The notes under the pieces: model-generated
Seen by the model: only the letters and a program-made list of their open reading frames with translations
Databases searched by the model: none
What the model was told of the DNA's origin: nothing
Assembly (NCBI GenBank): GCA_964459535.1
Contig: CAYWNJ010000001.1
Location: 1 to 29,226, forward strand
Direction: 5' to 3'
Source: an uncultured Rhodobacterales bacterium
Lineage (GTDB): Bacteria > Pseudomonadota > Alphaproteobacteria > Rhodobacterales > Rhodobacteraceae
Length of the DNA: 29,226 bases
Shown here: piece by piece, positions 1-28,362 of the stretch
Layout of the letters: each line of letters starts with the position of its first letter
Position numbering within the stretch: position 1 is the stretch's first letter
Position numbers and translations under genes: made by a program

Positions 1-90
1 AATCGGAAAAATGAAACATTCAAATTCGCGTTCGAGGCAAAGCCGAGAGGCAGCGAATTTGAATCCAATTTGACAAAACACGCTCTAAAG
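1..90 (+). repeat. Left copy of ~100-bp MITE-like element (5' end cut by window edge)
   Basis: Aligns to 25044-25133 with 3 mismatches (positions 56, 65, 72). It has an internal perfect 11-bp inverted repeat TTCAAATTCGC (19-29) / GCGAATTTGAA (53-63) and ends ...ACAAAACACGCTC-TA at 86-87. Confidence 0.9.
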
Positions 91-108
91 GGGCTGCTCC
101 CGGGCTAG
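88..108 (+). pseudogene. rmlA: Detached last six codons and stop of rmlA (K G L L P G stop)
   Basis: AAG GGG CTG CTC CCG GGC TAG directly follows the TA at the MITE end. It is in frame with ...TAT GGG GCC TAT CTA at 25014-25028 once the MITE is removed. Confidence 0.7.
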
Positions 109-123
109 GGCTGAGGAGCCCCC
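90..123. terminator. GC-rich hairpin downstream of the parB stop, overlapping the rmlA tail and stop; possible terminator
   Basis: GGGGCTGCTC ... GAGGAGCCCC pairs at 9/10 positions. There is no strong U-tract. Confidence 0.35.
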
Positions 124-136
124 TGCCCCAGCTGGC

Positions 137-160
137 AAATGTTTCGCGCGCGAAACATTT
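137..160. promoter_or_regulatory. Perfect 24-bp palindrome, putative parS centromere
   Basis: AAATGTTTCGCGCGCGAAACATTT overlaps the parB stop. It shares the TGTTTC/GAAACA arms of the canonical parS TGTTTCACGTGAAACA. Confidence 0.7.
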
Positions 161-1163
161 ACTTCGGCAAGGACCGGCGCAGATAGTTGAGCAGATCCAT
201 GCGCAGCTCATAGCTCATCTGCTTGCCCGACAGGCGCAGCCAGGTGCCGCTGGCATCCCACTCAGCCTCTAGGTCTTTGGCCACCGGACGCCGCGATACC
301 GCATCTGGCTTGGCGGGCGCTTTGGCCTCCGGCGGCGCGATACGTGCGGCAGACTCGGCCATCATTTTGGTCAGCAGCGCGGCTTCGGCTTCTGCGCTTT
401 GGGGCTTGGCCCCCAAAAGCGCCGCAGACGCCCGCCAAAACAACTCTGGATCCGCCTCAAGCGCTGCGGAAAGACGCAGGCCCAACCGCTCTCCGATCAT
501 ATGGGGAAAGCGCAGCGCCCCGTCGAGCCCGTTCACCACCGGCAGGAAGGACCGGATCTTGGACCGTTTCGCCCGCGAGGCCGAGCGGAAGAGCGTGAGC
601 AGCGCGGCCTTTTCACTCTCAAACACCCCCTGGCGCACCGCCTCTGCCGCAATGCGCGCCCGCTCGTAATAGCTGAGCCCCACACGAATCTCGTTTTCCT
701 CGACCATGGCGAGATAGGTCTCGGACGCCTCGACCGGCGCGCGCAACAGGGCAAGCACCTGGCCCGAATGTTGCCCCGCCTCTGCCAGCTGGGCGATCGC
801 GGTGCAGCGCCGCCAGCCCGAGATCAGACCATAGCCTCCCGTATCCGTCTTGAGTACCTCGATTGGGGTCTGTTGCCCGCGCTCTGCGATCGACTGGCGC
901 AGGGCTGCCATGTCATCCTCTTGGACCACCACCCGGTCGCGCACGATGTGATCCAGAACAATCTCTGCCACCGGCAAAGACAGCACCATCCGCCCCGACA
1001 CCCGCGCCGCCTGCAGCTCTTGGACCACATCAGAGAGCGCCGCGCTTTGCGCAGCATCCGCCGCCACATCTGCAATGGGGGCCCGGGCAAGGGCCGACTT
1101 GGTCTCGGGCGCGGCCCCGAACATCTCGGGGTTGGCGGGGCTGAGGCGTTTGCGTTTGGCCAT
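159..1163 (-). CDS. parB: ParB-family plasmid partition protein
   Basis: 334 aa with a ParB N-terminal motif (LRQSIAERGQQTPIEV...GYGLISGWRR). It lies directly downstream of parA and has an AAGGAG RBS. Confidence 0.9.
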   Translation of the reverse strand: MAKRKRLSPANPEMFGAAPETKSALARAPIADVAADAAQSAALSDVVQELQAARVSGRMVLSLPVAEIVLDHIVRDRVVVQEDDMAALRQSIAERGQQTPIEVLKTDTGGYGLISGWRRCTAIAQLAEAGQHSGQVLALLRAPVEASETYLAMVEENEIRVGLSYYERARIAAEAVRQGVFESEKAALLTLFRSASRAKRSKIRSFLPVVNGLDGALRFPHMIGERLGLRLSAALEADPELFWRASAALLGAKPQSAEAEAALLTKMMAESAARIAPPEAKAPAKPDAVSRRPVAKDLEAEWDASGTWLRLSGKQMSYELRMDLLNYLRRSLPK

Positions 1164-1199
1164 GTCAGTCTCCTTTATCAGGACAAAAGGGCAGGGTGG

Positions 1200-2591
1200 T
1201 TAACCTTTCCCTAGCTCCGCGTGCGCATCCCGGTGCCAGGCGCCCACCAAAAGCTGTTTGAACGCGGCATAGGTCGCATCAAAGGTTTCGCGCCCGCGCA
1301 CATAGGTCTCGCGGTTAAAATCGCGGTAATTGGCCTCGTAGATGCCTTGCACCTGTTCGCCCGCCTGCCCGATGAGCGCGGTAAAATCCTGGCGATGCGG
1401 GGACAGGGTGGGGCCGAGATAGGCCTGGATCAGCGCCGCCAGCTCGGCCTGCTGGGTGCCGTCATAGCGGGTGATGACCGCGCGCACCGCATCCCATTCA
1501 AATTGCAGCCCTTCCCGGCCCAAGGCGCGGGCGGCGACATTCTCGACCTCCTCGATCGAGCCGAACGTGGCGTGCAGCATGTCAAAGAACCGGCCCGTGC
1601 TGTCAAATTCCAAAAACGAAGCGCCGAGCGGGACGAGCAAGATATCCGCCGCCGCCAGCCCATTGATGGTCAGATAGCCCAGGGCAGGGGGCGTATCGAG
1701 GAAGATCACATCATAATCTGACAGAACCCCATCCGCCTCCAGACTGTCCGTCAGCGCATCCCACAGCTTCCAGCCTCGCGCGGCCATGCGCCAAACCGGG
1801 ATCTGAAACTCGGCCCAATAGAGGTTCAGCTGGGCGCCGATCAGGTCGATATTGGGCCAATGGGTCTTTTGAATAAGATCGGGCGCGCGGATCTCCAACG
1901 CTTCGGTGAGCGTGTCATCCAGCGGGGCAGGGGCCTCGCCCCGGTCCAGCCGGCGCTGGTTCTCGGTGCGCAGATGCTGGGCGTAATGCCGGGCCATGAG
2001 CGGAAAGACGGTTTGCCATTCGTCCTGCACCTGGCCCCCAAAGATCGAGGTCATCGATCCTTGGCTGTCCAGATCCACCACCAGCACCTTATAGCCATCG
2101 AGCGCCGCCGACATGGCCAGATGGGCCGCCGTGCTGGTCTTGCCCACACCGCCCTTGAAATTGGCCACCGCCACCAGTTTGGCAGGCAGGTCTTTGGGAC
2201 GGTAGGGCAGGTACTCTTTGGCCTTAGAGCCCTCTTGGCCGAAATGCGCCTTAAGCCGCAGCACCTCGTCAAAGCTAAACCATTTGGCGCCGCCATCGGT
2301 TTCTGAACGCCCTTGGGGCAGGTCCGGGTTTTGCTTCAGCACCCGGCGAAAATGGCCTGTGGCGACGGGGATCAAATAGCGGGTGATCTCCCATGTCGAG
2401 AATAGCCGCAGCTGCCGGTCTGTCCCGGCCTGCAGTCCGCGCGATGTCAGATCGGTGCGCCCCTGGGCACAGGCTGCCGCGATCTGGGCAAAATCATCGG
2501 TGCTGGCGCTGGTGCCAAGGCTGGCTTGCGCCTCTGCAGGGTTGATGTTGAAATAGGGCGGAGGGGTTTGTGGGGCAGGTTTGCGTTGCAT
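1200..2591 (-). CDS. parA: ParA-family partition ATPase with N-terminal extension
   Basis: 463 aa with deviant Walker A VANFKGGVGKTST, DLDSQGS and DTPPALG motifs. Confidence 0.93.
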   Translation of the reverse strand: MQRKPAPQTPPPYFNINPAEAQASLGTSASTDDFAQIAAACAQGRTDLTSRGLQAGTDRQLRLFSTWEITRYLIPVATGHFRRVLKQNPDLPQGRSETDGGAKWFSFDEVLRLKAHFGQEGSKAKEYLPYRPKDLPAKLVAVANFKGGVGKTSTAAHLAMSAALDGYKVLVVDLDSQGSMTSIFGGQVQDEWQTVFPLMARHYAQHLRTENQRRLDRGEAPAPLDDTLTEALEIRAPDLIQKTHWPNIDLIGAQLNLYWAEFQIPVWRMAARGWKLWDALTDSLEADGVLSDYDVIFLDTPPALGYLTINGLAAADILLVPLGASFLEFDSTGRFFDMLHATFGSIEEVENVAARALGREGLQFEWDAVRAVITRYDGTQQAELAALIQAYLGPTLSPHRQDFTALIGQAGEQVQGIYEANYRDFNRETYVRGRETFDATYAAFKQLLVGAWHRDAHAELGKG

Positions 2592-2756
2592 GATCTGGAT
2601 CGCCTGTTTGCGCCTATGTGCGTTCTTTTCCCAAAGTTAGCACAAAATAGCCAACATGGAAAGAAAGATGCAGCACGCCCTGGTTTTTCTAAGTAAATCA
2701 GTCTTTTCCATAAGAACTTCCCTTGGGATCTATGGGCTGGTTTTGCAGCTGGTGGA

Positions 2757-2857
2757 AAAAATATGATGTTAAATTCTGTTATATTTTAAGTTAAGGGCTA
2801 AACCTGTTTGACCCATAACATTGAAATAACGTAATTTTTTGGACTTTCTTTTTCTTT
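2757..2857. other. AT-rich tract next to the iterons (candidate DNA-unwinding element)
   Basis: Visibly A/T-rich sequence inside an otherwise GC-rich module, immediately left of the iterons. Confidence 0.6.
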
Positions 2858-2916
2858 GAGCGACTCTGATCCCCCGATAGAGCGACTCTGATCCCCCATT
2901 AAAGCGACTCTGATCC
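2858..2916 (+). repeat. Three iterons of the plasmid origin
   Basis: AGCGACTCTGATCC occurs at 2859, 2881 and 2903, an exact 22-bp period. Copies 1 and 2 share 18 bp. Confidence 0.9.
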
Positions 2917-2941
2917 GGCGTTCACATCGCTGGACGAGGGC

Positions 2942-2950
2942 TGTGGATAA
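2942..2950 (-). promoter_or_regulatory. DnaA box
   Basis: TGTGGATAA is the reverse complement of the consensus TTATCCACA. It lies between the iterons and the rep start. Confidence 0.85.
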
Positions 2951-3032
2951 CTCTAGGCTGGTGTCACTGAAACCCCGAAGAATCGGGCCCTCATGATCGG
3001 GGCTAACAATCGGCGAAGGCACGAGCAGAGCC

Positions 3033-4046
3033 ATGACCCAAGCAGACGGGCGCTTGCCCGACCGTCATCCCACAGGTGATTTTTTCATCTGCGATATCTT
3101 TGGGGCCGCGCCCAAGGATGATCTGGGCTCGATGGAGCACCCTATCTTTTCGCTTAGCACCCGGCCTGACCGGCGGGTGCTGAGCTATGCCCATAATGGC
3201 ACAGAGGTCACGGTGACCCCGTCTGTGCGCGGGCGGGCCACGATCTATGACAAGGATATCTTGATCTATTGCATCAGCCAGCTTGTCGCGGCGCTGAATG
3301 CGGGTCGCGCGGTCTCGCGCCGGCTTACGCTCAAGGCGCATGACCTTTTGGTGGCCACCAATCGGGACACGGGCGGGGACAGCTATGTGCGGCTGCGCGA
3401 GGCCTTTGAGCGGCTGGCGGGCACGCGTATCACCACCAACATAGCCACCGGCGGGGCTGAGACAACCGCCGGTTTTGGTCTGATCGAGAGCTGGCAGATC
3501 CAGCGCCGCACCAAGGGTGGGCGGATGATCTCGGTGTCGGTGGTGCTGTCGGAATGGCTCTTTCGTGCGGTGGAGGCGCGGGCGGTGCTCACGCTCAGCC
3601 GGGACTATTTTCGCCTCCGTAAACCGCTGGAGCGGCGGATCTACGAGCTGTGCAGAAAGCATTGCGGGCGCCAGCCGGATTGGCGTGTGAGCGTTGCGAT
3701 TTTGCACAAAAAGGCGGGCAGCGCCGCGCCTTTGCGCGTCTTCCGCGCGGCCCTGCGGGGGATTATTGCGGCGCAAACCTTGCCCGATTACCAGCTTGAA
3801 GAAGGGCCAGGCGACATGCTGCATGTGCGCCCTCACCGCCTGATTGAACCAGATGCCGCTGCCCCGCGCCCCAGTGCCGAGGCGCTGGAGGCCGCCCGCG
3901 CGCTAGCCCCTGGCTGGGATGTCTACGCGCTTGAGGCCGATTGGCGCGCCTTCTGGGCCGCCTCTGGGCGGGTGCGCCTCAGCTCAGTGGACAAAGCGTT
4001 TCTGGGCTGGGTCTCTTTTTATGTCTCGAAGAGGGGCGACTTGTGA
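3033..4046 (+). CDS. repA: Replication initiator protein A (RPA family; roseobacter RepA-type replicase)
   Basis: 337 aa with characteristic motifs DFFICDIF..PKDD..SMEHPIFSLS, ATIYDKDILIYCISQ and YFRLRKPLERRIYELCRKHCG. It is divergent from parAB with the iterons in between. Confidence 0.92.
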   Translation: MTQADGRLPDRHPTGDFFICDIFGAAPKDDLGSMEHPIFSLSTRPDRRVLSYAHNGTEVTVTPSVRGRATIYDKDILIYCISQLVAALNAGRAVSRRLTLKAHDLLVATNRDTGGDSYVRLREAFERLAGTRITTNIATGGAETTAGFGLIESWQIQRRTKGGRMISVSVVLSEWLFRAVEARAVLTLSRDYFRLRKPLERRIYELCRKHCGRQPDWRVSVAILHKKAGSAAPLRVFRAALRGIIAAQTLPDYQLEEGPGDMLHVRPHRLIEPDAAAPRPSAEALEAARALAPGWDVYALEADWRAFWAASGRVRLSSVDKAFLGWVSFYVSKRGDL

Positions 4047-4124
4047 CCGCTCAGGCTGTAACGTATTATTTGAAATATCTCATGCGAGAACCAGCGCGGC
4101 GGGCGTTCTAAGAGGGGACAGGGT

Positions 4125-6599
4125 TTGCCCAACAGATCGGCTCCTCTAACGCGTATTTGGCGCATCTTTCAGCGTTACGCTATTGGGCGTTTGCAGTTAA
4201 AGTTACCAACCGGCCCCCTGAAAGGGGGCGGGCATGTGGATAGCGTTATTGTGAAAGGTGGACGCCTGTACCTGGAAGGCTGGGGTATGGGTGATCGCAT
4301 AGGATTACGCCAAGGCCGTGCAACCACTTGGGCCGTACCACATATAAACAAACCAGGGAGTTCCGAGCGCGGTTTTGCTGTCGATCAGCCCTTTGAGCCA
4401 GGCCCCTTTTCGGTCTTAGTCCAACAAGACGGGACTGTGGTTGAAACAAGCTTTTCCGGAGTGACGCATTGGGCTTACGGCCTGCGCCGGTCGCTGCTGT
4501 TGGGGCCTTATCTTGTTGATATCATCCGAGCACTGCCTTTGATATGGCGCTGGCTGTACCGTGGGGAAATGGGCGCGCGGGAAACGCTCAAAGAACGGCT
4601 TTATCTTGTGCCGATCCGTGCTGCCGTGCAGATGCACTCTACTGTGGTGTTGGCCGATGATGCGCCATCTGTAATCGCCCGCCCCGCGGCGCTGATATTG
4701 CCGGTTTACAACGGTTTTGATGTACTCCCAGAGACGTTGCGCCGGATAGCGGCGCATTCTGGAGAGAATTGGAAACTCATCCTCATTGAGGATTGTTCGC
4801 CCGATCCTCAAATCCGCCCCTTTCTGCGTGCATGGTGTGCCGAAAACGCAGACCGGGTGGATCTCGTAGAAAATTCTGAGAACCTTGGTTTCATTGGGTC
4901 TGTGAATGTTGGTCTGTCCCTGGCGGCGCAACAGGCACCAGGCGATCCAGTGGTGTTGGTGAACGCGGATGCTTGGGTGCCGCCCGGATGGTTACCGCGC
5001 CTGCTGGCCCCGCTGGAGGATGTGACGGTTGCCTCGGTTACGCCGCTTTCAAATGATGCAGAGCTGTATTGCGTCCCCACACTCTGCCAACCCCATGCGC
5101 TCGCCGACGGAATGGTAGATCGGCTCGACGTTGCTGCGCAAACCCTACGCCCAGCACACGATATCGACATTCCGACCGGTGTGGGTTTTTGTATGGCGCT
5201 TGCGCCCCATTTTTTGGCACAGGTGCCGAATTTTGATCCAGCTTTCGGCCGGGGCTATGGTGAAGAGGTCGATTGGTGCCAGAAAACCCGTGCCTTGGGT
5301 GGACGGCATGTCGCAGCTGTGAATCTTTTTGTGGAACACCGTGGTGGGGCCTCTTTTGGGCAGACGCAAAAGACGCTTCTTTTGGCGCGTAACGGCGCTG
5401 AAATTAGCCGGCGCTATCCAAGCTATGATGCGCAGGTACAGGATTTTATTCGCTCTGACCCGTTGGTGACATTTCGCCTAGCGCTTGGGTTAGACTGGGC
5501 CGCATTATCTCAAAAAGGCGATGCGGTGCCGATCTATCTGGCGCATGCGATGGGTGGTGGGGCCGAGGCCTGGCTGCAACGCCGCCTTAAGGAACATACG
5601 CAGATGGGCGATGCCGCGGTCGTGCTGCGTGTCGGCCTAGGGCGACGCTGGAACATTGAACTGCATTCAGAGTTGGGTATGACCCAAGGGCTGACGGATG
5701 AAACAGAGCTGGTACGCACATTGCTACATCGTCTGCCCCGTCGGCGGATAATTTACTCCTGTGGGGTTGGCATGCGCGAGGCGCATCAGTTGCCAGGCAT
5801 CTTGTGTGAGCTGGCATCAAATGGTGAGCACCGCTTGGAGGTTTTGTTCCACGATTTTTTTCCGATCAGCCCGTCTTACACTTTGCTGGGCGAGGATGGG
5901 GGTTATCGTGGGGTGCCGCGCGGAGGCAGTCCGAGTGAGAATGATCACGCTCATAGCTTCGATGCTCCAAATGAACGTATCTCGCTGGCACATTGGCAAG
6001 CGAGCTGGGGAGAACTCATAACCGCGGCGCATCGAATCACAGTTTTTTCTCAGAGCAGTGCCGCGATTGTCAGGCAGGTTTGGCCCGAGGCGGCCCCACG
6101 CATTCAGGTCCGCCCCCACACCTTACACAGCCCACTGTTGCCTGTTGCGTCAGCCACTGACGCGAGGACGCTTACGATCGCCGCTTTGGGCAACATAGGG
6201 GCACAAAAAGGGGCCGGTGTCCTAGAGCAATTGAGCCGGAAGCTTGCACAGCGAAATGACTTACGTTTGGTCATTATTGGGCATATCGACCCCAGCTATA
6301 GCCTATCTAAGCCTGGGATTGTTCACGGATCTTATGAGCCCAAAGACATTCCGGCTTTGATCCAACGCTACCAAATTTCGGGCTGGATTATCCCGTCCAT
6401 TTGGCCCGAGACCTTTTCATTTACCACCCATGAGGCAATAGCGACCGGTCTGCCGGTGCTGGTATTTGACTTGGGTGCCCAAGCCGATGCTGTGGCAGAT
6501 ATAGACCAAGGATATGTGCTGCCACTTGATGCAATCGAAGAGGGGTTAGAGCCTGATTTCCTCTGTGACATCTTACGGCGAGGCAGACAGACGCCATGA
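4125..6599 (+). CDS. Multidomain glycosyltransferase (GT2 domain plus C-terminal GT-B/GT4-like domain), candidate capsule polymerase
   Basis: GT2 motifs LILPVYNG, LILIEDCSPD, ENLGFIGSVN, VLVNADAWV and GYGEEVDWC. C-terminal IPSIWPETFSFTTHEA..TGLPV. TTG start with GAGGGG 7 nt upstream. Confidence 0.85.
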   Translation: MPNRSAPLTRIWRIFQRYAIGRLQLKLPTGPLKGGGHVDSVIVKGGRLYLEGWGMGDRIGLRQGRATTWAVPHINKPGSSERGFAVDQPFEPGPFSVLVQQDGTVVETSFSGVTHWAYGLRRSLLLGPYLVDIIRALPLIWRWLYRGEMGARETLKERLYLVPIRAAVQMHSTVVLADDAPSVIARPAALILPVYNGFDVLPETLRRIAAHSGENWKLILIEDCSPDPQIRPFLRAWCAENADRVDLVENSENLGFIGSVNVGLSLAAQQAPGDPVVLVNADAWVPPGWLPRLLAPLEDVTVASVTPLSNDAELYCVPTLCQPHALADGMVDRLDVAAQTLRPAHDIDIPTGVGFCMALAPHFLAQVPNFDPAFGRGYGEEVDWCQKTRALGGRHVAAVNLFVEHRGGASFGQTQKTLLLARNGAEISRRYPSYDAQVQDFIRSDPLVTFRLALGLDWAALSQKGDAVPIYLAHAMGGGAEAWLQRRLKEHTQMGDAAVVLRVGLGRRWNIELHSELGMTQGLTDETELVRTLLHRLPRRRIIYSCGVGMREAHQLPGILCELASNGEHRLEVLFHDFFPISPSYTLLGEDGGYRGVPRGGSPSENDHAHSFDAPNERISLAHWQASWGELITAAHRITVFSQSSAAIVRQVWPEAAPRIQVRPHTLHSPLLPVASATDARTLTIAALGNIGAQKGAGVLEQLSRKLAQRNDLRLVIIGHIDPSYSLSKPGIVHGSYEPKDIPALIQRYQISGWIIPSIWPETFSFTTHEAIATGLPVLVFDLGAQADAVADIDQGYVLPLDAIEEGLEPDFLCDILRRGRQTP

Positions 6600-7795
6600 G
6601 CACCAAGCGCAGCATGCTAATTCATATTGGGGCTCCAAAATGTGGCTCCTCGGCCCTACAATATACTCTGAGCCAGGATCCAATTTTGAATTCCCCAGAG
6701 CGCCCCGAACATCGCTACATGTCTGTTCTGTCTGGTGAGGGCGGGTTGGAATTGTTATCTGGCGCGGCGCTGACCCGATATGCTGAAACAACGCCATTTG
6801 GTTATACCAGCTTTCCGGATTTTGACCCCAAGCAAGACCCCGCCCCGATTGCCGAAGCCATCATGCAGGCTCATAGGTTGGGCCAGGAAGAAAATTTCAT
6901 ACCGATCCTTTCTTCGGAGGGTTGGATCAACGCGCCAGGTATTTTTGCTGATATTTTGGCTGATATGAGCTACCCAAGGGTCGATGTTGTCGTCTTTTTG
7001 CGGGCTCCGGCAGAGTGGCTGAACTCGGCTTATTGGCAATGGGGCGTTTGGCTAGAAGGCAGTGTTGCCGACTGGTTGCGGCAGGGTGGGATACGCTATG
7101 ATTTTGGTCATCAGTTGAAGTTATGGAGCCGGCTGCCCCATGTGCGGCTGCATGTGCGCATGACCCATGGCGATGTTTTGGGCCAATTTACTGATGCAAC
7201 AGGCGTGCGGCTGAAAAAAACGGGGCAACGCAATACAGCCTCTCCGCGCAGTTTGATCGGTGTGTTGCGGCGGAACCGGGTTTTTCGCGTCGATGGTCAT
7301 GACAGCAAAACAGAGTTCGTTTTCCAGCGATGGTGCCGGGTGGATCTTGGGCCCAGTCTGTGGGCCTTTGATGCTGAACACATGTCTGAATTGGCGACCC
7401 AGCACATGAGCGAACTGGCCCTTTTAGAACCTTTCGTGAGCGCCTCAGACATTCAGGCCCTTGCTCACAGCCCGCCACATGTCCCAACCACAGAAGACGA
7501 TTTTCGCGTGGCCAGTGAGCTGTACACACTGCATTCCGCCTTGCTTCAAGGTGTGAGCCGCGCCTGTGCAGCAGCTAAGCGTCCCGCGCCAGATCTTCCG
7601 GCACTTCCCCCTCAGAAGGAGCGGATTATCGCCATCGAAGACATCTCCGCTTGGGATGAATGTATTTGCCGTGCACTGGAGGCTCTTCTAGCGGCGGACG
7701 CCGCTGCACGCATTATGCCCAACAGAATCGCAGCTCAAATTAAGGCACGCACACGCCGACTGTTTAATCGGATGCAAAAGTGGACCAATGGCTGA
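6596..7795 (+). CDS. Sulfotransferase-fold (P-loop-like) protein
   Basis: N-terminal LIHIGAPKCGSSALQ resembles the 5'-PSB loop. Later ILSSEG and VVVFLRAP..WLNSAYWQ motifs. The start overlaps the upstream stop (ATGA). Confidence 0.65.
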   Translation: MSTKRSMLIHIGAPKCGSSALQYTLSQDPILNSPERPEHRYMSVLSGEGGLELLSGAALTRYAETTPFGYTSFPDFDPKQDPAPIAEAIMQAHRLGQEENFIPILSSEGWINAPGIFADILADMSYPRVDVVVFLRAPAEWLNSAYWQWGVWLEGSVADWLRQGGIRYDFGHQLKLWSRLPHVRLHVRMTHGDVLGQFTDATGVRLKKTGQRNTASPRSLIGVLRRNRVFRVDGHDSKTEFVFQRWCRVDLGPSLWAFDAEHMSELATQHMSELALLEPFVSASDIQALAHSPPHVPTTEDDFRVASELYTLHSALLQGVSRACAAAKRPAPDLPALPPQKERIIAIEDISAWDECICRALEALLAADAAARIMPNRIAAQIKARTRRLFNRMQKWTNG

Positions 7796-9902: not shown

Positions 9903-10089
9903 GGGAGATTTCAAGATCTAGGGCACTTCGCGCTAGGGTCCTGACCCTAGGCCGGGTGGCAGCGCATGACGTCGAGGGACATCCCGTTCCCATCTGTGCT
10001 GGATGTCAGAGACCAAGTGCATTATGCCCGATACAAACGAATCTTGTAGCGCTATTTCACCTGCAGCGTGCATGTTCTCCGGGGTTGTC

Positions 10090-14986: not shown

Positions 14987-15004
14987 GAACCCAAAGCCCC
15001 GTGT

Positions 15005-16309: not shown

Positions 16310-16389
16310 TGGGCGTGTTGTGGGCTTTGATTTATGACCATAAAATGATGAATACCGTTTTCATGTCCATGTCAACAAGCGGGCGGGCG

Positions 16390-17199: not shown

Positions 17200-17371
17200 T
17201 CTGCCCGCTTTTTAAGCCTTTGGCCTAGCAACTGTATTTCTCAGAAGTGTTGCTTGGTCCAAGTTTGTCGGGATTTACAGAGCGCAGCAGCTAGGCCTTT
17301 TGTTCAACTTTACGGTTTGCTAAAGAAACCTCCAAGTTGAGGGGTAGCGAAACAGCCATGCGATTTAACAA

Positions 17372-18307
17372 ATGATATCATTGCAAAATAAGAAGATTTG
17401 GGTTGCGGGTCATCGAGGCATGGTGGGCTCTGCCATTGTCCGGCGCCTGGCCTCGGAGGATTGTGAGATCCTCACGGTGTCACGTTCTGAGGTCGACCTG
17501 CGTGACCGCAGTGCGGTGGATGCTTGGATTAAAGACGCACGGCCAGATATGGTCGTGCTCGCCGCGGCGAAGGTGGGCGGCATTCTGGCGAACGACAGCT
17601 ACCCGGTCGATTTTCTATACGAAAATCTGGCGATTCAGAACAATGTGATCACGCTAAGCCATACCCATGATGTGGAAAAGCTACTGTTCTTGGGCTCATC
17701 CTGCATCTACCCCAAAATGGCACCACAACCGATTACCGAAGATGCTTTGCTGACTGGTCCGCTAGAGCCAACAAACGAGTGGTATGCAATTGCAAAAATT
17801 GCAGGGATCAAATTGTGCCAGGCTTATATGAAACAATACGGCGCGCGGTTTGTTTCGGGTATGCCAACAAATCTCTATGGTCCCTATGACAATTTTGACT
17901 TGGCTTCTAGCCACGTGATCCCTGCGCTGATGCGCAAGGCGCATGAGGCTAAGCTTGCTGGTGAAGATGGGATGGAAATTTGGGGCACTGGCTCACCGCT
18001 GCGCGAATTCATGCATGTAGATGATTTGGCCGATGCCGCCGTCTATGTGCTACGTGCCTATGAAGATTATGAACATATCAACATGGGAAGCGGTGACGAA
18101 GTCTCAATTGCCGAGGTGGCGCAGTTGGTGATGCGCGTTGTCGGCACCTCGGGTCATCTACGCCATGATCTATCCAAACCCGATGGTACACCACGCAAGT
18201 TGATGTCAGCGGACAAGCTGAAGGCTGCAGGCTGGGAGCCCAAAATTACCCTCGAAGACGGCCTCCACAGCACCTACGAATGGTTCATGGAACATGTTGC
18301 GCAATAG
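17372..18307 (+). CDS. fcl: GDP-L-fucose synthase
   Basis: 311 aa with VAGHRGMVGSA, AAAKVGGI..N, LFLGSSCIYPK, YAIAK and MPTNLYGP..NF. Confidence 0.96.
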   Translation: MISLQNKKIWVAGHRGMVGSAIVRRLASEDCEILTVSRSEVDLRDRSAVDAWIKDARPDMVVLAAAKVGGILANDSYPVDFLYENLAIQNNVITLSHTHDVEKLLFLGSSCIYPKMAPQPITEDALLTGPLEPTNEWYAIAKIAGIKLCQAYMKQYGARFVSGMPTNLYGPYDNFDLASSHVIPALMRKAHEAKLAGEDGMEIWGTGSPLREFMHVDDLADAAVYVLRAYEDYEHINMGSGDEVSIAEVAQLVMRVVGTSGHLRHDLSKPDGTPRKLMSADKLKAAGWEPKITLEDGLHSTYEWFMEHVAQ

Positions 18308-18422
18308 CAGCTCGTCTATCCAGATTGCGATCTATCGCACTTATTTCCAGGCATACCGCAGCCATCTGCTTGGATGAAGAATACATGCAAAAGGCTGTGA
18401 GCACTCAAGATTGGACATACAT

Positions 18423-19436
18423 ATGAAAAAGGCATTTATCTCTGGCATCACAGGACAGGACGGTGCATATCTGGCTCAGCTTTTGCTGGAAAAGGGCTAT
18501 GAGGTGCATGGCGGCGTGCGCCGAATCTCGCAACCTGAGACCGTTCGTTTGGAGCAGGTCGGTGTGCTCAAAGATGTGACCCTGCACGAGCTTGATCTCT
18601 CCGAGATGATGAACATTTTCCGTCTCATTCGTGACGGTCAATATGACGAATTTTACAATCTTGCCGCGCAGAGCTTTGTTGGATCCTCTTGGGATCAGCC
18701 CATCTACGCTGCTGATGTGAACGGTGTTGCGGTGGCACGGATACTGGAGAGCATACGCTCCGTCTCGCCTCATACCCGTTTCTACCAAGCCTCCACCTCA
18801 GAGATGTACGGGCTGGTACAGGCGGTACCGCAATCGGAGACCACGCGCTTCTATCCCCGCTCACCCTATGGCGTGGCCAAGGTTTATGGCCATTATATCA
18901 CCGTAAACTTCCGCGAGAGTTTCGACATGCACGCCTCCTGCGGGATCCTCTTTAATCATGAGAGCCCGTTGCGCGGCAAAGAATTCGTGACACGCAAAAT
19001 CACTATGGCTCTCGCCAAGATGGCCCGGGGTGGCAGCGATACACTTGTGTTGGGCAATCTGGAGGCGCAGCGCGACTGGGGCTTTGCAGGTGATTATGTG
19101 GAAGGCATGTGGCGCATGCTGCAGCAAGACAGCGCTGATGATTATGTGCTCGCGACAGGAGTGACCACGCCAATCCGCGATTTTGTGAATTTCGCTGCCG
19201 CAGAGCTTGGCTTTGATATTGAATGGACAGGCGAAGGCATCGACGAAGTGGGCACCGACCGCAAGACTGGGAAAAAGCTGGTAGAGATTTCCGAGAAGTT
19301 TTTCCGCCCGGCGGAGGTGGACCTGCTCATTGGTGACGCAACCAAGGCACGCACTGCTCTTGGATGGGAGCCCAAAGTGGACGTACGCGCACTTGCCAAC
19401 ATGATGGCCAAAGCTGACTATGACGCGCTTGGTTGA
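18423..19436 (+). CDS. gmd: GDP-mannose 4,6-dehydratase
   Basis: ISGITGQDGAYLA, YNLAAQSFV, QASTSEMYG, PRSPYGVAK and GILFNHESPLRG.EFVTRKI. Confidence 0.97.
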   Translation: MKKAFISGITGQDGAYLAQLLLEKGYEVHGGVRRISQPETVRLEQVGVLKDVTLHELDLSEMMNIFRLIRDGQYDEFYNLAAQSFVGSSWDQPIYAADVNGVAVARILESIRSVSPHTRFYQASTSEMYGLVQAVPQSETTRFYPRSPYGVAKVYGHYITVNFRESFDMHASCGILFNHESPLRGKEFVTRKITMALAKMARGGSDTLVLGNLEAQRDWGFAGDYVEGMWRMLQQDSADDYVLATGVTTPIRDFVNFAAAELGFDIEWTGEGIDEVGTDRKTGKKLVEISEKFFRPAEVDLLIGDATKARTALGWEPKVDVRALANMMAKADYDALG

Positions 19437-22047
19437 ACAGACCCAACCACACCCCAAACTGACCAGCCGGGTCGCGGCTCTCTTGCCGGCAACCCTGCGT
19501 CGTAAATTATCTGAACTGCGCGCAGCATCTCGAAAATCAGCAGAAGCGCGCAGTACAGCGCCCTATCGCGGCAACCTCGAAGGCGTTAGCCCCGAAGGCG
19601 TCCTGACGGGCTGGGTATTTGATAAAGAAAACCGCACGGGTCGTATACTTGTAGGGCTCTATGCCGGGGAAACTTTGGTCGAAACGGGAACAGCCCAGTT
19701 TCGGCGCGATGATGTTGCAGCGGCCCATGGGTGTGATGCGACCTGCGGGCTGCGCTTTGCCATTGGTGAGCAGCTGCTTGTCAAGTTACGCGATCATGCT
19801 GGGGTGTTATCCGTGCGCACCATGTCGGCAGAACCGTTCGAGATCGGTTCCGTTACATTGAAAGTTGATGACTCGGATCCGCCGGTTGGAGAGAGCGATA
19901 TTGGCTTTTTGGCCCATGTTCTCAAACCTGATCTCGACGCTCTGTTGGCAGCGTTGGAGGCTATACCTGAAAACGTGGCAGCGCCCGGCCCTGTCCGTCA
20001 TCCGCCCTTTGTCCCTCATGGCAAGATGTTCCAGACGGAACAGATCATACCCGAAATCCCTATCTCGGGTCAGCCCGCGTATATGGATTACGTGCGCTAT
20101 CGTTATCGTAAAGACGAGGAGTTCGCGGTAGCCCCTGGCCATGATGCGGCGGATCGCTATTTGTATTGGTATATTACCACATACCGCTCGCGCGAAAATC
20201 GGCGTGTGCCATTAGGCGCGGAACAGATTGCATATCTAAACGCGCCGATGGTGATGGGGGGACAGCAATATGTTCTGAGCCGTGCGATCTGGTGGCGGCT
20301 TCTAGAACGTTCAGATCTTTTGGGTAAGCTAAACCTGAACAATCGCGATGCGTACCACGACATACTCTTTTGGTGGGCCTATTCGGACTGCCCAACGCTC
20401 TATCTTGAAGATTGCCTGGTGCCGGACCGGTTTGCCGATCAACTGCGAGGCGTGCACCCCTCGCGCCGCTTTGACGCCTATCCGTTGAGTTATTTCACGG
20501 AGCGATATTTTCATGAGAACCCGGCTCTGCACCGGCTTGATGCCGGCAGTGCTCAAGGGCGTAAGACGCTGGTGCTGTGCATGCTGCTCCGCGCAATACA
20601 GCGCCCTGATTTGCTGCGCTATATCCCCTCAGGTTTGATCACCCAATTGCTGGCACCTGGTACCGACAACATGCCAAGTGCCTTAGAAAATTTTGTCCAC
20701 GATTTACGCTCTGCTGTATCCGAGGTCGCAACAGACACCCCAACCCGTCTGTCACTGAGCGCTGAGCGCTATATGCACATGCTGCGCACGGCGCAGTTTG
20801 ATCTGGCCTCGCGCCGCTTTCTGACCATTTCGCCAGCAGGGCACCGCTTTGAAGCGGCCGCGATGCCGGCCCCACGAGAAAGCGCCGATCTGCCGACGGT
20901 CGATGTACAATTGATCGGCCCACTGGCCAAGGCGTCAGGCCTAGGTCAGGCGACGCGCCTATCGGCGGATATCTTGCGTGCCACGGGTTTGTCTTTGCGC
21001 TGCGTAGACTTTGATCTCGATAATCCTGCGCCCGAAGGCTTTAGTTCCGATGCTCAAATAGACGAATACGGTCCGGCGCAAATTAACTTGATTCATCTTA
21101 ATGCCGAATCCACGCCACTTGCATTTGCCTATCAACCCGATGTGTTTTCGGGGCGCTATAATGTGGGCTACTTTTTTTGGGAGCTCGACCGCCCCGCTTA
21201 TTGCCATTACTTAGGTATGGATTTGCTGGATGAGATCTGGGTCTGCACCGAATACGGTGCTGCGGTCTACAGCCGAGATGATCATGACAAACCGGTGGTC
21301 AATGTCGGGATGTGTTATGAAAACATACCCGATATCGCCCGGACCGACAGCCGTGCTTTTGTGGAAGAGCGGTTTCTTTTCACCAAAGAGCATTTTATCT
21401 GCCTGGTCGCCTTTGACAGTTTCTCCTTTGTCCAGCGTAAAAACCCGGTAAATGTCCTGCTCGCGTTCCAGAAAGCGTTTGAAGGCGTTCCCGAAGCGCG
21501 GCTGGTGATCAAAACACAGAACCGCGATAGTGTCTTTGACCTTGTGCAAATGCAGCTGTGGGAACAGGTAGACCGTATTGTCGCCGAAGATCCTCGATTG
21601 GTCATCATGAATGAAACGCTCAGCTATCGTGACGTCTTGAGGCTTAAGGCCGGATGCGATTGCTATGTCACCTTACACAAATCTGAAGGTTGGGGGTTTG
21701 GCATGATCGAAGCGATGAACCTGGGCGTGCCTGTCGTATGCACAGGCTATTCAGGCAATATGGACTTCTGCACACCCCAAACAGCATGGTTGGTTGATTA
21801 CGAAGAAACGCCGCTGGAGCAAGATGATTACATCTTTGTGCGCAAAGGCTCGCGTTGGGCCGAGCCCGATATCGCTTCGGCCGCTGCTCAGCTGCGTGCG
21901 GTTTACGATGATCCCGCCGCGCGGGCCGCTAAGGCAGATGCGGCACAAACCATGATCCGCAACGCATTTTCATGCGACGCAATTGCAAAGCGTTATGGCA
22001 ATCGCCTACGTGAAATCCTTGCTATGCTGGACCATAGCACGCCATAG
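19420..22047 (+). CDS. Large multidomain glycosyltransferase with C-terminal GT4 domain
   Basis: 875 aa with C-terminal FFWEL, RKNP, SEGWGFGMIEAM.LGVPVVCTGYSGNMDF. It overlaps the gmd stop by 17 bp. Confidence 0.87.
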   Translation: MTRLVEQTQPHPKLTSRVAALLPATLRRKLSELRAASRKSAEARSTAPYRGNLEGVSPEGVLTGWVFDKENRTGRILVGLYAGETLVETGTAQFRRDDVAAAHGCDATCGLRFAIGEQLLVKLRDHAGVLSVRTMSAEPFEIGSVTLKVDDSDPPVGESDIGFLAHVLKPDLDALLAALEAIPENVAAPGPVRHPPFVPHGKMFQTEQIIPEIPISGQPAYMDYVRYRYRKDEEFAVAPGHDAADRYLYWYITTYRSRENRRVPLGAEQIAYLNAPMVMGGQQYVLSRAIWWRLLERSDLLGKLNLNNRDAYHDILFWWAYSDCPTLYLEDCLVPDRFADQLRGVHPSRRFDAYPLSYFTERYFHENPALHRLDAGSAQGRKTLVLCMLLRAIQRPDLLRYIPSGLITQLLAPGTDNMPSALENFVHDLRSAVSEVATDTPTRLSLSAERYMHMLRTAQFDLASRRFLTISPAGHRFEAAAMPAPRESADLPTVDVQLIGPLAKASGLGQATRLSADILRATGLSLRCVDFDLDNPAPEGFSSDAQIDEYGPAQINLIHLNAESTPLAFAYQPDVFSGRYNVGYFFWELDRPAYCHYLGMDLLDEIWVCTEYGAAVYSRDDHDKPVVNVGMCYENIPDIARTDSRAFVEERFLFTKEHFICLVAFDSFSFVQRKNPVNVLLAFQKAFEGVPEARLVIKTQNRDSVFDLVQMQLWEQVDRIVAEDPRLVIMNETLSYRDVLRLKAGCDCYVTLHKSEGWGFGMIEAMNLGVPVVCTGYSGNMDFCTPQTAWLVDYEETPLEQDDYIFVRKGSRWAEPDIASAAAQLRAVYDDPAARAAKADAAQTMIRNAFSCDAIAKRYGNRLREILAMLDHSTP

Positions 22048-22056
22048 GATCAGACC

Positions 22057-23829
22057 ATGTCAAAGCGTTCATCAAAGCCGCGCTTGGTAATTCACCTAGG
22101 CTTGCACAAAACCGGCTCCAGTTCACTACAGCATTGGCTATTACGTCATCAAACGGTGCTAGACCCACACCTGGCCTGTTATAACCTCGCAGACGGCAGC
22201 TCCAACTCAATTAAATTCGCAGCTCAAGCACTGGTGCTGGGCCAATTGACAATGGCAGGGTATCGCCAGCACGTAACCGAGTGGTTGCCTGTTTTTGACG
22301 CCATTGAACACCCAGCGATTTTATTGACTGACGAAGGGCTTTTGGGCCTGCCGATAGGATCGGTAACAGGTGACTATCACGAAACTGGTTTTTATCCTTT
22401 CGCAGCATCTATTGTAGAAGTTTTTGCTGAGGTTTTTGTTGAGTATGACCCCATTTTTGTTGTGATGCAGCGTGATACAGAAACTTGGTTACGCTCAATA
22501 CACAACCAAATGTATAGGCAAGGCTATGCCAGCAATAACTTTGATGAATTTGCCGCCGACCATGCAGGCAAGATAGATTGGTCGTCTTTGGTCGCGACTT
22601 TGGAAGCCACGATTGCTCATGGCGGGAAAGGGCGCGGCCGGCTTGAGGTGTTACAGTTCGAAGAAGAGTTTGCCACCGAAACCGTCTCTGACATGGGGTT
22701 TTTTCAAATTCTGGGTCTCCCTCCAGATCTAATGTCTCAATGCGAGCCGACCTTGCCTCACATCAATAGGTCACTTCCGATTTCAGTGCTGAATGTGCCA
22801 AAGCGCCCTGTGATGTTACTAGGCGCGCAAAATTCGATGCTGGAAGGCGGTTGGGTGAACCTGATGCGTCGCCAATTCGAAACTATGGTTGAGGTCACAA
22901 ACTTATCAGTGCTCTCATGTTCGAGCGCAACGGCGCTCTACCGCTTTATTAGTCATCAAAATCGCCCGGAGGATGAGGCGGTATTCTGGGAATACGGACA
23001 AAACGAATTTGACCATATGCAAGCTGGTCAAACATTAGAGAGCATACTCTATCATGTTGAATGGCTGATCCAACAATGCATTCGTCAGCAACGGCCCTTT
23101 GTCCCGGTGTTGATGAGTACCTGCACTCAGATGAGCTTTGGTGACGATCCTTGCCTGTCGGGTCTACGTCGGCTTTTTGAAGCCTATAAAATCAATTATG
23201 TGGATGTGCCTACACTGCTGTCTGTATTGGGCCGTGGGTCAGTGGACTTGGCACATTGGTATGCTGATGACACCTATTACAATGTATTGACTGAGTTGCC
23301 CGTGCGCGTGGCCGAGCAAGCAATGTTGACACTGCTCAAAGCTCAGCCGCCCGTGCAGATCCCAGAGCGTGCGGCGCATTTTGAAGGGCGTGACCTGGTA
23401 CTCGTCTACCCTGATGGAGGCGCGCATGAGGTATTCGACAATGGTGCCATTCGCCTTCCTTTTGAGGCCTATAAAGACGACTCACTTCGCTTTTCGATTA
23501 GTGGACATGTGATGGCTGCCGTGATTGTAACCACAGGCGCAGGACCTGCAGTATCAATTGAGATTGATGACATTCCTCTGCCCGGCATCTGGTCGACTCA
23601 GGTCGATTATGGAGATGATGCCCCCATACAGCACGTACGTCAGTTGGTGCTACCGGGTCAAACCGGTGTAGACACTGCAAGTTCAGTGACCGTACGCGCT
23701 TTGCAAAGCACGGAGCAAGCGCCAAAATTACAGTCAGGCTATGTTTGGAAAACGTCAGACGCGACAGCGATGTCAGCACATCGTATGAACGGAGTTTCAG
23801 CATTGGTCGCGGAAATTTTTCAAGCCTAA
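22057..23829 (+). CDS. Fusion of an N-terminal sulfotransferase-fold domain and a C-terminal SGNH-hydrolase-like domain
   Basis: N-terminal VIHLGLHKTGSSSLQ. From ~22800 there are SGNH-like blocks LLGAQNS, NLSVLSCSS, WEYGQNE and YADDTYY. Confidence 0.65.
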   Translation: MSKRSSKPRLVIHLGLHKTGSSSLQHWLLRHQTVLDPHLACYNLADGSSNSIKFAAQALVLGQLTMAGYRQHVTEWLPVFDAIEHPAILLTDEGLLGLPIGSVTGDYHETGFYPFAASIVEVFAEVFVEYDPIFVVMQRDTETWLRSIHNQMYRQGYASNNFDEFAADHAGKIDWSSLVATLEATIAHGGKGRGRLEVLQFEEEFATETVSDMGFFQILGLPPDLMSQCEPTLPHINRSLPISVLNVPKRPVMLLGAQNSMLEGGWVNLMRRQFETMVEVTNLSVLSCSSATALYRFISHQNRPEDEAVFWEYGQNEFDHMQAGQTLESILYHVEWLIQQCIRQQRPFVPVLMSTCTQMSFGDDPCLSGLRRLFEAYKINYVDVPTLLSVLGRGSVDLAHWYADDTYYNVLTELPVRVAEQAMLTLLKAQPPVQIPERAAHFEGRDLVLVYPDGGAHEVFDNGAIRLPFEAYKDDSLRFSISGHVMAAVIVTTGAGPAVSIEIDDIPLPGIWSTQVDYGDDAPIQHVRQLVLPGQTGVDTASSVTVRALQSTEQAPKLQSGYVWKTSDATAMSAHRMNGVSALVAEIFQA

Positions 23830-24268
23830 TGGGGCCGCTTTCAGCAGTTGGCGAAATAGTCACTTAGGCTCGACCCAGGAATGAATATCCCGATTACCCA
23901 AGGACAAACTCTGCGATGTACCCAGACACCCAGTATTGTCGATTTCAAACCGCCATACGGACAATACACCTGATGCCCCATCGATGCTGTAGGAAACCCC
24001 AGATCGTGTGCTCACAAATAGGCCAGGGCCCACGCAATCGGCAACCCTAACCCACTATTTTCAATGTCGAACTCTACCGACCGAGCATATGCAAGCGCAC
24101 TCATGTCTCTATTCACCCCCACGGCTTAATGCCTTCAGGAGCTATCGAGTGGCTGTGGGTATAGGATTTTCACTACAGGTGCAGTGATCTTCTTGCGCTC
24201 AGACCATAAGAGAGGGTTTGTCCGCTTCCGTCTATGATTTTCGCGTATCCGTCCACTCAAACGAAGGA

Positions 24269-24304
24269 CAGCCAAACGCGCGTATTGCTTGGAACAGGAA
24301 TCAA
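24269..24304 (-). pseudogene. tnpB: First 12 codons of IS66 tnpB
   Basis: TTG start overlapping the tnpA stop, translating (M)[11 protein letters not shown], the typical TnpB N-terminus. It then jumps to the right-end sequence. Confidence 0.75.
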
Positions 24305-24717
24305 GTGGTCAAACCTTGAACAAGGCAAACAACTGCCGTCAGCGCAGTCGACCCTTCAACCAAAATACGTCGTCCATCCGACAAAGTGATGTCCACCCGG
24401 GTGGCGGACAGACCGCCAGCGACCACGGCCATGCCCGTGTTCGGCAGAACAGGGGGATCAGAGGCAACGGCAACTTCAAGAAAGTCAGAAACCTCAATGT
24501 CATTCTCAGACAAAGGCCCGGATGGCACAAATCGAGGATCACGCAACCACTTGTGGATCAGATTGGCATTCATCGAATATCGACGTGCAACCTGCGCTAC
24601 CGAAACCCCGGAAACACGCGCCTGGTTGCAAATCGATTGCTTCTCATCATCCGACCAAAAACGCTTCTTCTGGCCCTTCTTGCCCGCCATAGAGTGCCTC
24701 AAGATGTCCACTATCAA
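24301..24717 (-). CDS. tnpA: IS66-family accessory protein TnpA (HTH)
   Basis: [14 protein letters not shown]...[27 protein letters not shown]...[14 protein letters not shown]. The start may be 24690. Confidence 0.88.
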
Positions 24718-24776
24718 TGGTGGACACTATCACCACACTCCTAGCCGCGTCAGAGCAGGGAAACCGGACGGATACG

Positions 24777-25028
24777 CTGATACTGGCGGGGATCCAAGAG
24801 ATTTGCGTGATCACCACGCCCCAGGACCAGGCCCAGTTTCAGCGCACGCTGGGGGATGGCAGCCAAATGGGGGATCCGCCTGAGCTATATCGAGCAGCCC
24901 TCTCCGAACGCCAAGGCCAACAGGTGGGCTGCCCCGAGGAGATCGCGTTTGAGCAGGGTTGGATCAGCGCGGACCAACTGGCCGAGCGCGCCGGGCTTTT
25001 CGCCAAGACGCAATATGGGGCCTATCTA
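24777..25028 (+). pseudogene. rmlA: Shattered glucose-1-phosphate thymidylyltransferase (rmlA/rfbA)
   Basis: The N-part reads [30 protein letters not shown], then [13 protein letters not shown] after a 1-nt shift. It is fused to the C-part [23 protein letters not shown]...YGAYL. Confidence 0.9.
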
Positions 25029-25130
25029 GCGCTTGTTTTGTTCAATCGGAAAAATGAAACATTCAAATTCGCGTTCGAGGCAAAGCCGAGAGGCAGCGCA
25101 TTTGAATTCAATTTAACAAAACACGCTCTA
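25027..25130 (+). mobile_element. Right, complete copy of the MITE-like element (100 bp between TA dinucleotides)
   Basis: Terminal inverted repeats TAGCGCTTGTTTTGTTCAAT (25027-25046) and the reverse complement of 25111-25130 (TAGAGCGTGTTTTGTTAAAT) match 17/20. It has an internal hairpin and TA at both ends. Confidence 0.8.
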
Positions 25131-25276
25131 AAGCGCCCGATCTCAAAATTGAGGCGTTCTACGACGACAATTCGGATGGCACCCGCCCCGTGGGGGCGAA
25201 GCTACCCAGCGCAACAGCGACTGTTGCGCGTAAGATGTGTGCGAAGCGAGAGGCTTCAGATCAAAAGTTGGATGCT

Positions 25277-26379: not shown

Positions 26380-26382
26380 GCT

Positions 26383-27329: not shown

Positions 27330-27346
27330 CGCTGCACATAATAAAA

Positions 27347-28351: not shown

Positions 28352-28362
28352 GGAGATTGCCT

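Follow-up and report, generated by a model that had tools for sequence, protein, structure and literature searches.

The window, that is, the whole 29,226-nt stretch of DNA analysed here, is an entire contig (C1), and its base 1 is the start of that contig. The plasmid that it carries comes from a marine roseobacter and was recovered from a marine biofilm metagenome. At the left of the plasmid, a ParB/RepB-like partition protein of 334 aa is encoded on the minus strand (159-1163); its matches to PF02195 and TIGR03454 both fall under the cut-off, and the gene holds the position of ParB in pDSHI02. Beside it, also on the minus strand, lies the gene of a ParA-type partition ATPase of 463 aa (1200-2591; PF13614, PF01656 and TIGR03453), which shares about 79% nucleotide identity with AAA ATPase genes of Rhodobacteraceae plasmids. 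An iteron-like array with a 22-bp period and 2.7 copies, the putative origin (2858-2916), separates parA from repA (3033-4046, plus strand), whose product matches the replication initiator family PF10134 over its full length with 321 bits and is 74% identical in amino acids to a Rhodobacteraceae plasmid RepA. RepA, ParA, the ParB-like protein and the 22-bp iterons thus form a replication and partition module of its own, as a free plasmid has. Judged by homology, RepA would most likely bind the iterons and so replicate the plasmid, with ParAB providing partition. No conjugation genes were found on the 25,043-bp plasmid, and no tRNA, tyrosine integrase or serine recombinase on contig C1.

Most of the cargo is a capsule-type polysaccharide locus (4125-23829) with KpsMTE, GDP-fucose and sulfotransferase genes. 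It encodes glycosyltransferases (4125-6599, 10003-11283, 11262-12827 and 19420-22047), ManC (8490-9902), Fcl (17372-18307), Gmd (18411-19436) and two sulfotransferase-like proteins (12813-13799, minus strand, and 22057-23829). A capsule-type ABC exporter can be recognised at family level from a KpsT/Wzt-like ATPase (14324-14986, minus strand), a KpsE-family protein (15005-16309, minus strand; TIGR01010) and a KpsM-like protein (16213-17199; NF050053), all of which score below the equivalog cut-offs. Further to the right lies an orphan IS66-family TnpA accessory gene (24301-24717, minus strand; PF01527, and NF047595 with 75.1 bits, the cut-off being 74), which is not followed by tnpB or tnpC. 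It adjoins an internally deleted remnant of rmlA (24717-25026, plus strand). This stub is all that is present of a rhamnose operon rmlCBDA, as rmlB, rmlC and rmlD are absent from the annotated ORFs.

The remainder of the contig (25131-29226) is a fragment of chromosome, as indicated by its context in relatives and in independent contigs (L052-L055). It carries genes for DUF6280 (25277-25597, minus strand), efp (25648-26379, with the true start near 25816), a TetR regulator (26703-27329), DUF599 (27552-28466, minus strand) and a glcD-like protein (28357-29226) that runs off the contig end. Looking up the TetR protein, in order to test the second join across a repeat, gave no record, probably owing to another choice of start codon in the gene call. 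In congeners, DUF6280 and efp stand with conserved neighbours in contigs of 448 kb (G001) and 4.7 Mb (G018). The GC content of this tail is 0.58, equal to the genome mean, against 0.54 in the plasmid.

MITE copies at the two ends of the plasmid

The initial annotation described a RepA/Par and origin module and a capsule locus lying between direct MITE repeats, chromosomal-type genes to their right and neither integrase, resolvase nor tRNA, and our gene and repeat analyses bear out each of these points. Bases 1-99 are repeated directly at 25044-25142 with a spacing of 25,043 bp, and the first 90 bases of the two copies are identical at 87 of 90 positions. The internal copy is a full element of about 104 bp (25027-25130, plus strand) with terminal inverted repeats (TIRs) of around 16 bp and TA flanks. 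The copy at base 1 (1-87, plus strand) is the one that belongs to the plasmid; the contig start has cut off its first 17 bp and left the 87 bp on the right. Being short, non-coding, multicopy and bounded by TIRs and TA, the element is a MITE of the TA-targeting, Tc1/IS630-like type; TA stands outside 72 of the 99 TIR sites in the assembly. No match was obtained in an Rfam scan of the window, and the MITE hairpin corresponds to no known RNA family. A search for an autonomous parent with the same TIRs found no two TIRs separated by 600-3000 bp, which, given the fragmentation of the assembly, is weak evidence of absence.

The source assembly comprises 668 contigs (N50 5.6 kb, 3.06 Mb), and about 60 copies of the MITE are spread over 55 of them, 11 at contig ends. 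Because of this abundance, the presence of two copies on one contig is not beyond chance expectation. Exact overlaps between contig ends in this assembly show a sharp maximum at 55 bp, with 112 counts, from which it follows that it was built with k=55. The first 55 bases of C1 are exactly those of 25044-25098, the first mismatch being at base 56, so that bases 1-55 are a 55-mer graph node common to both places and bases 1-25098 represent a graph loop with a tail. To the left of base 1 there is no chromosomal flank, and no contig end in the source assembly exactly overlaps the start of C1. Four MITE-ending contigs that might have been its left neighbours (C337, C332, C640 and C162) overlap C1 at only 90-94% identity, and none is the same copy. 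Contig C444, which carries the YdjM-like gene discussed below, was likewise rejected as a direct graph neighbour, since 71 bp separate its start from the chromosomal MITE and it has no k-mer overlap with C1.

The bases that distinguish the MITE copies locate the join. The plasmid MITE has GC at 25029-30 and A, C and G at 25099, 25108 and 25115, and the chromosomal MITE has AA and C, T and A at the same sites. In the internal copy of the window, GC is combined with C, T and A, so the element is a hybrid with plasmid bases at its left end and chromosomal bases at its right end. This combination places the switch from plasmid to chromosome inside a 68-bp stretch (25031-25098) that is identical in the two copies and longer than k.

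Circle and empty site in independent assemblies

We compared C1 with independent k=141 assemblies from ENA, whose record names suggest that they share the biofilm study and the BioSample with the MAG. In ERZ27264700, contig k141_772499 (25,039 bp) runs from window position 14672 to 25043 and then directly from 1 to 14667 with 100% identity. In ERZ27264732, the two ends of k141_1174512 (25,059 bp) share the 16 bp of window 7793-7808, which gives a circle of 25,043 bp (25,059 - 16), and a third assembly holds a scaffold of 25,104 bp. The plasmid therefore closes on itself, with window position 25043 joined to base 1. The join from 25028 through the MITE to 88, which the initial annotation had named, for reads, among the signs of a free, mis-assembled plasmid, is present at contig level.

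The coding sequence also runs across this junction. Beyond the plasmid MITE, window positions 88-108 contain the last codons and the stop of rmlA, and when the MITE and one TA are excised in silico the natural-length C-terminus and the stop are restored across the circle junction only. The ORF spanning the circle junction (144 aa), on which the matches to TIGR01207 were obtained, occurs on four contigs from at least three assemblies. The ORF spanning the hybrid junction (187 aa) was found on no public contig.

The chromosomal site is also found without the plasmid. L052, L053 and L055, contigs of three different assemblies, contain efp, DUF6280 and the MITE, and then diverge from the window at 25023 into a YdjM-like gene, giving an empty site of the order YdjM-like gene, MITE, DUF6280, efp. 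The YdjM-like gene is that of C444 in the same MAG, and in the congener G001 it adjoins DUF6280. None of the other public assemblies contains the hybrid junction, which occurs in this k=55 contig only.

Could the circle itself be the artefact, the other assemblies having collapsed a true MITE-flanked chromosomal island? Direct repeats around an island can indeed give false circular contigs when the repeat exceeds k. Here, however, the 104-bp MITE is shorter than k=141, so that a 141-mer must hold both unique flanks; moreover, the empty site was assembled independently three times, the circle junction leaves the rmlA reading frame unbroken, and the diagnostic bases on the left and on the right occur together in parental combinations. 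We regard a false circle as highly improbable.

Origin of the hybrid junction

How did a complete plasmid come to stand beside efp in one contig? Very probably C1 is a chimera, in which the free circular plasmid (1-25043) has been mis-joined to the chromosome through a MITE common to both, as an artefact of de Bruijn assembly at k=55. The chromosome has its own MITE copy between the YdjM-like gene and DUF6280-efp; through the 68 identical bases shared by the two copies, which exceed k, the plasmid loop touches the chromosomal path in the graph, and the assembler probably made one circuit of the loop before taking the chromosomal branch. We infer that the hybrid junction stems from such a walk of the assembler rather than from a real recombinant molecule. 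The contig resembles the repeat-mediated chimeras of short-read de Bruijn assemblies in every respect: an exact repeat of 68 bp exceeds the k of 55, the first bases of the contig are the repeated k-mer, the length of the loop equals that of the true circle, and a larger k resolves both molecules. It corresponds to a textbook case, with no notable difference. A mis-join through the repeat, with base 1 as a contig start, had been put forward in the initial annotation as an alternative to integration, and it is this alternative that the start of C1 on the common 55-mer and the k=141 assemblies support.

The initial annotation itself proposed that the plasmid is integrated between the two MITEs and that the MITE serves as a portable attachment site. 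In some members of the population, recombination within the 68-bp stretch would then have inserted the plasmid at the site flanked by the YdjM-like gene and DUF6280, with free circles and empty sites coexisting. The substrate is present, as the two MITE copies have the same direction relative to the join and share 68 identical bases; the assembler did pass through the node, and a hybrid MITE is the expected product of a crossover. Paired-end-aware assemblers normally require some support to extend through a branch, and cointegrates do form through shared repeats, as exemplified by Hfr formation by F via IS elements. In plasmid-chromosome cointegrates that arise via IS elements or MITEs, the same mobile repeat lies on both replicons, as it does here; the difference is that here the parental junctions alone are independently supported. 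These junctions were assembled at k=141, which requires real spanning reads, whereas the hybrid junction is missing from every independent assembly. Of the two recombinant junctions of a cointegrate, the left is represented by a contig end and the right by this contig only. The initial annotation had proposed to look left of base 1 for the rest of the MITE and chromosomal genes; the contig starts within the MITE, in line with its caveat about a contig start. C1 begins exactly on a k-mer node without a link to C444, and RecA-dependent recombination over 68 bp is inefficient.

Depth may also speak against a cointegrate, in which plasmid and flanking chromosome would be equally deep. In k=31 Logan contigs from runs X1 and X2, plasmid depth was 6.0 and 7.3 and tail depth 3.8 and 3.3, ratios of about 1.6 and 2.2 that are noisy owing to low depth, strain splitting and coverage holes. 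One of the biofilm metagenome runs that contain the window appears to be SRR6869053, judged by an identical Logan contig of 2,595 bp. The Logan contigs are interrupted at the MITE and too short in k to connect the diagnostic bases, which are 71 bp apart, so that the hybrid junction lacks support but is not directly disproved. In these contigs, strain SNPs occur in the C1 tail, and the plasmid is almost clonal. At a depth of about 6-7x a minority of real cointegrates may be present. On balance, we consider a cointegrate in part of the population very unlikely. The same applies to the idea that a minority of cells carries the plasmid integrated through the 68-bp MITE core and that C1 records a real capsule episome, switched reversibly through the MITE and present together with free circles and empty sites. 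As for the entire 29-kb contig being extrachromosomal, with efp, DUF6280, TetR and glcD on the same plasmid or chromid, roseobacter chromids with core-like genes exist (PMC5030684 and general knowledge) and the tail is joined to the plasmid in C1, but this reading is refuted by the independent contigs, in which a circle of 25,043 bp is complete and the tail genes are absent, and the long efp-DUF6280 contigs of congeners and the genome-like GC content of the tail leave it a negligible probability.

Taken as a chimera, C1 calls for caution, since a public MAG contig that sets a complete plasmid beside efp would be taken for a capsule island inserted in the chromosome. Assembly at small k readily yields such loop-plus-tail chimeras from MITE-rich genomes, and their signature, the recurrence of the first k bases of a contig inside it, lends itself to automatic screening. 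The species-specific MITE that this plasmid carries is also useful evidence for tying it to its host.

A small polysaccharide plasmid of roseobacters

What is real in C1 is a small polysaccharide plasmid of roseobacters, of RepA type and without the rhamnose operon, which belongs to a known kind and is ordinary within it. RepA-I 'biofilm plasmids' of the Roseobacter group, such as pPGA1_65 (65 kb) of Phaeobacter inhibens DSM 17395, were described by Michael et al. (2016; PMC5030684). The 25-kb plasmid has the same module layout as pPGA1_65 (parB-parA, origin and divergent repA). Its RepA shows 68% identity to that of pPGA1_65 along the whole protein, a figure that does not in itself assign it to the RepA-I clade. 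Both carry polysaccharide cargo, represented here by ManC, Gmd, GDP-L-fucose synthase, a sulfotransferase, GT4 enzymes and the capsule-type ABC exporter. They differ in size, and the 25-kb plasmid has neither type I secretion nor LuxR genes; the rhamnose operon, which defines the 'biofilm plasmids', has been lost from it, save for the internally deleted and MITE-disrupted rmlA stub. On the basis of its gene content, the plasmid most likely supplies its roseobacter host with a fucose-containing, probably sulfated surface polysaccharide, as the 'biofilm plasmids' do. A 25-kb plasmid that keeps the GDP-fucose, sulfotransferase and KpsMTE genes would be a modest addition to this family.

Comparison with pDSHI02 of Dinoroseobacter shibae DFL 12 (153 kb) gave a RepA identity of 69%, a parA gene of equal length (1392 bp), the same order of ParB, ParA and RepA, and polysaccharide genes adjoining the module. 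pDSHI02 differs in being six times larger, in having a recombinase beside repA and in the rest of its cargo. In PLSDB there is no near-identical plasmid: a megablast search with the whole plasmid matched the par/rep module alone, at about 79-80% identity and a coverage of at most 8%. The RepA of the 25,043-bp plasmid is lacking in the three congeners, and a second RepA, 68% identical to it, is encoded in the same MAG on contig C40.

Circle junction and empty chromosomal site in independent assemblies

The initial annotation read window positions 1-25133 as an integrase-free capsule episome between two direct MITE copies, and named a mis-join through the repeat as the alternative. The repeat pair is real (1-99 against 25044-25142, with 87/90 identities in the first 90 bases, spacing 25,043 bp), yet it is the alternative that proved right: base 1 is a contig start, since the window is an entire contig, and the circle and the empty chromosomal site have each been assembled independently. 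With these two structures and a hybrid MITE at the internal junction, the MITE-flanked episome is very probably an assembly artefact. What actually exists is a circular, RepA-type Rhodobacteraceae plasmid of 25,043 bp.

An exact ParB protein search of public assemblies found a 25,039-bp contig (ENA ERZ27264700 k141_772499) in which window 14672-25043 is followed directly by 1-14667 at 100% identity; it contains the circle junction, from the polysaccharide end through the MITE to parB. The ends of a second contig (ERZ27264732 k141_1174512, 25,059 bp) share exactly 16 bp, window 7793-7808 (25,059 - 16 = 25,043), and a third assembly holds a 25,104-bp scaffold with the same genes. For the chromosomal side, an exact DUF6280 protein search returned four contigs from four public assemblies. 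Three of them follow the window leftwards from about 26500 as far as 25024, then part from it and continue with a YdjM-like gene (188 aa), a second MITE and an ABC ATPase; the fourth stops within the MITE. The YdjM-like flank corresponds to C444, another contig of the same bin, at 99.2% identity, and the YdjM-like gene is homologous to the DUF6280 neighbour in the nearly closed congener genome G001. This YdjM-like gene/MITE/DUF6280 arrangement is the empty chromosomal site, bearing its own MITE.

Assembly graph and hybrid MITE

How did plasmid and chromosome come to share a contig? The contig is the longest of 668 in a 3.06-Mb assembly (86% complete, N50 5.6 kb), and its left MITE copy is without the first 17 bp solely because it is cut by the contig start. 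Among exact overlaps of contig ends, a length of 55 bp stands out sharply (112 counts versus 2-20 at other lengths), and the contigs are therefore the product of a de Bruijn graph with k=55. Bases 1-55 exactly equal 25044-25098, with the first mismatch at base 56, so that in the graph 1-25098 is an edge leaving and re-entering one node. This edge makes a loop of 25,043 bp, and from the same node 25099-29226 departs as a tail. The graph would look alike for a free circle with a repeat copy on the chromosome and for a cointegrate, and the contig alone cannot separate them.

Diagnostic bases tell the MITE copies apart. The plasmid MITE has GC at the equivalents of 25029-30 and A, C and G at those of 25099, 25108 and 25115, and the chromosomal MITE has AA and C, T and A. 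The window's internal MITE (25027-25130) combines GC with C, T and A: it is a hybrid, with plasmid bases on the left and chromosomal bases on the right, and the switch must fall in 25031-25098. These 68 bases, identical in both parent MITEs, exceed k=55 and are shorter than k=141. In the public assembly search, the ORF spanning the hybrid junction (24717-25280, 187 aa) was on no contig, and that spanning the circle junction (144 aa) was on four, which came from at least three assemblies. That a minor population of real cointegrate exists is quite improbable. The ORF from 24717 is an rmlA remnant (TIGR01207 matches). Once the MITE and one TA are removed from the circle junction, it ends ...YGAYLKGLLPG-stop; an intact RmlA paralogue on contig C326 ends ...YGKYLKRLVQ-stop, and across the hybrid junction the frame continues without a stop. 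Because the C-terminus is restored across the circle junction and not the hybrid, the plasmid's MITE must have inserted into plasmid DNA, both flanks being plasmid.

Mean k-mer depth in Logan contigs from the two biofilm metagenome runs in which the window occurs (X1 and X2) was 6.0 and 7.3 over 9227-24567, and 3.8 and 3.3 over repeat-free bins of the tail. The chromosomal tail (25131-29226) shows alternative alleles between these runs of the same sample, in SNP clusters at 26440-26620 and 28503-28531; in the 15 kb of plasmid compared there is one variant alone (11465 G>T). These depth and allele data are thin and serve as support only; they agree with a separate replicon that exceeds one copy per chromosome or is common to several strains, and fit a single-copy island poorly.

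The plasmid and its kin

The gene content initially described was borne out, as was the lack of an integrase: the contig is free of tRNA genes, tyrosine integrases and serine recombinases. Genes for a ParB-like protein (159-1163) and ParA (1200-2591) lie on the minus strand. They are followed by an array of 22-bp iterons (2858-2916), RepA (3033-4046, PF10134) and a polysaccharide locus that encodes ManC, Gmd, GDP-L-fucose synthase, export proteins resembling KpsM, KpsE and KpsT, several glycosyltransferases and sulfotransferase-like proteins. Next come an orphan IS66 tnpA and the rmlA stub, ahead of the internal MITE; DUF6280, efp, TetR, DUF599 and glcD follow it. By homology, RepA and the iterons would initiate replication, ParAB would partition the plasmid, and KpsMTE would export a fucose-containing, probably sulfated polysaccharide that may aid surface attachment. 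Two sulfotransferase-like proteins (12813-13799, minus strand, and 22057-23829, plus strand) adjoin a GDP-L-fucose pathway that is complete, an arrangement suggestive of a fucose-containing, sulfated product; their Pfam matches are weak (29.8 bits for the first and 20.3 bits, under the cut-off, for the second).

The plasmid is real but ordinary, adding to a kind already known. Its RepA shares 74% identity with the RepAs of plasmids from Antarctobacter, Tropicibacter and others, and 68% and 69% with those of pPGA1_65 (the RepA-I reference) and pDSHI02, which have the same parB-parA / ori / repA layout. ManC, Gmd, Fcl, sulfotransferase, GT4 enzymes and a capsule-type ABC exporter are likewise found on the Phaeobacter 'biofilm plasmid' (PMC5030684), but of the rhamnose operon that defines the latter only the broken rmlA is left here. 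PLSDB holds no near-identical plasmid, only par/rep module matches of about 80%. The 463-aa ParA has an extension of about 135 aa before its P-loop domain; as the homologous ATPase gene of pDSHI02 matches it in length, the extension is a conserved trait of this replicon type. Logan contigs from both runs end exactly at 24726, where several differing continuations branch off. The stretch round the orphan tnpA (24269-24776) is 72-84% similar to contigs C587 and C79 of the bin, and so is an IS-related repeat within the community.

The host and its dispersed repeats

The host belongs to the roseobacter group; its EF-P best matches an Aliishimia MAG (94%) and is too conserved for naming a genus. 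In G001 the DUF6280-efp pair is on a contig of 448 kb and in another relative, G018, on one of 4.7 Mb, and the window's RepA is absent from all three congeners examined. On the chromosomal flank, ERZ27264700 k141_1140771, one of the independent contigs with efp, DUF6280 and the MITE, differs from C444 by 15 mismatches in 1.8 kb, against 2 in 1.5 kb on the DUF6280-efp side; therefore more than one host strain is present. Two more PF10134 RepA genes, at 1371-2351 of contig C40 (68% identical to the window's RepA) and 521-1441 of contig C60 (44%), point to at least three RepA-type replicons in the bin, and the C40 paralogue poses a question of compatibility groups.

Aligning 43 genomic copies gave a full MITE of about 104 bp (25027-25130), which is bounded by the terminal inverted repeats TAGAGCtTGTTTTGTT ... 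AACAAAACACGCTCTA and has a hairpin conserved at its centre. Since TA directly flanks 72 of 99 such TIR-like sites and no parent of autonomous size is assembled in this genome, the element is a TA-targeting MITE. About 60 copies are spread over 55 contigs, 11 of them at contig ends, and two copies spaced 25 kb are unremarkable here. With at least 60 copies in this genome, a single congener match (78%) and none in 19 other relatives searched, the MITE is essentially species-specific; for this reason a copy on the plasmid is good evidence of the plasmid's residence in this host.

The window itself holds two further families of dispersed repeats. One, of about 100 bp, fills 25183-25282 between the MITE and DUF6280 (about 47 matches in the genome, 70-83% identical). 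The other, of about 173 bp, lies at 27341-27513 between TetR and DUF599 (more than 120 matches, 87-94% identical) and exceeds k=55. In G001, DUF6280-efp, TetR and DUF599-glcD occupy three separate places, and the TetR/DUF599 join across this repeat may be either another mis-join or a genuine rearrangement.
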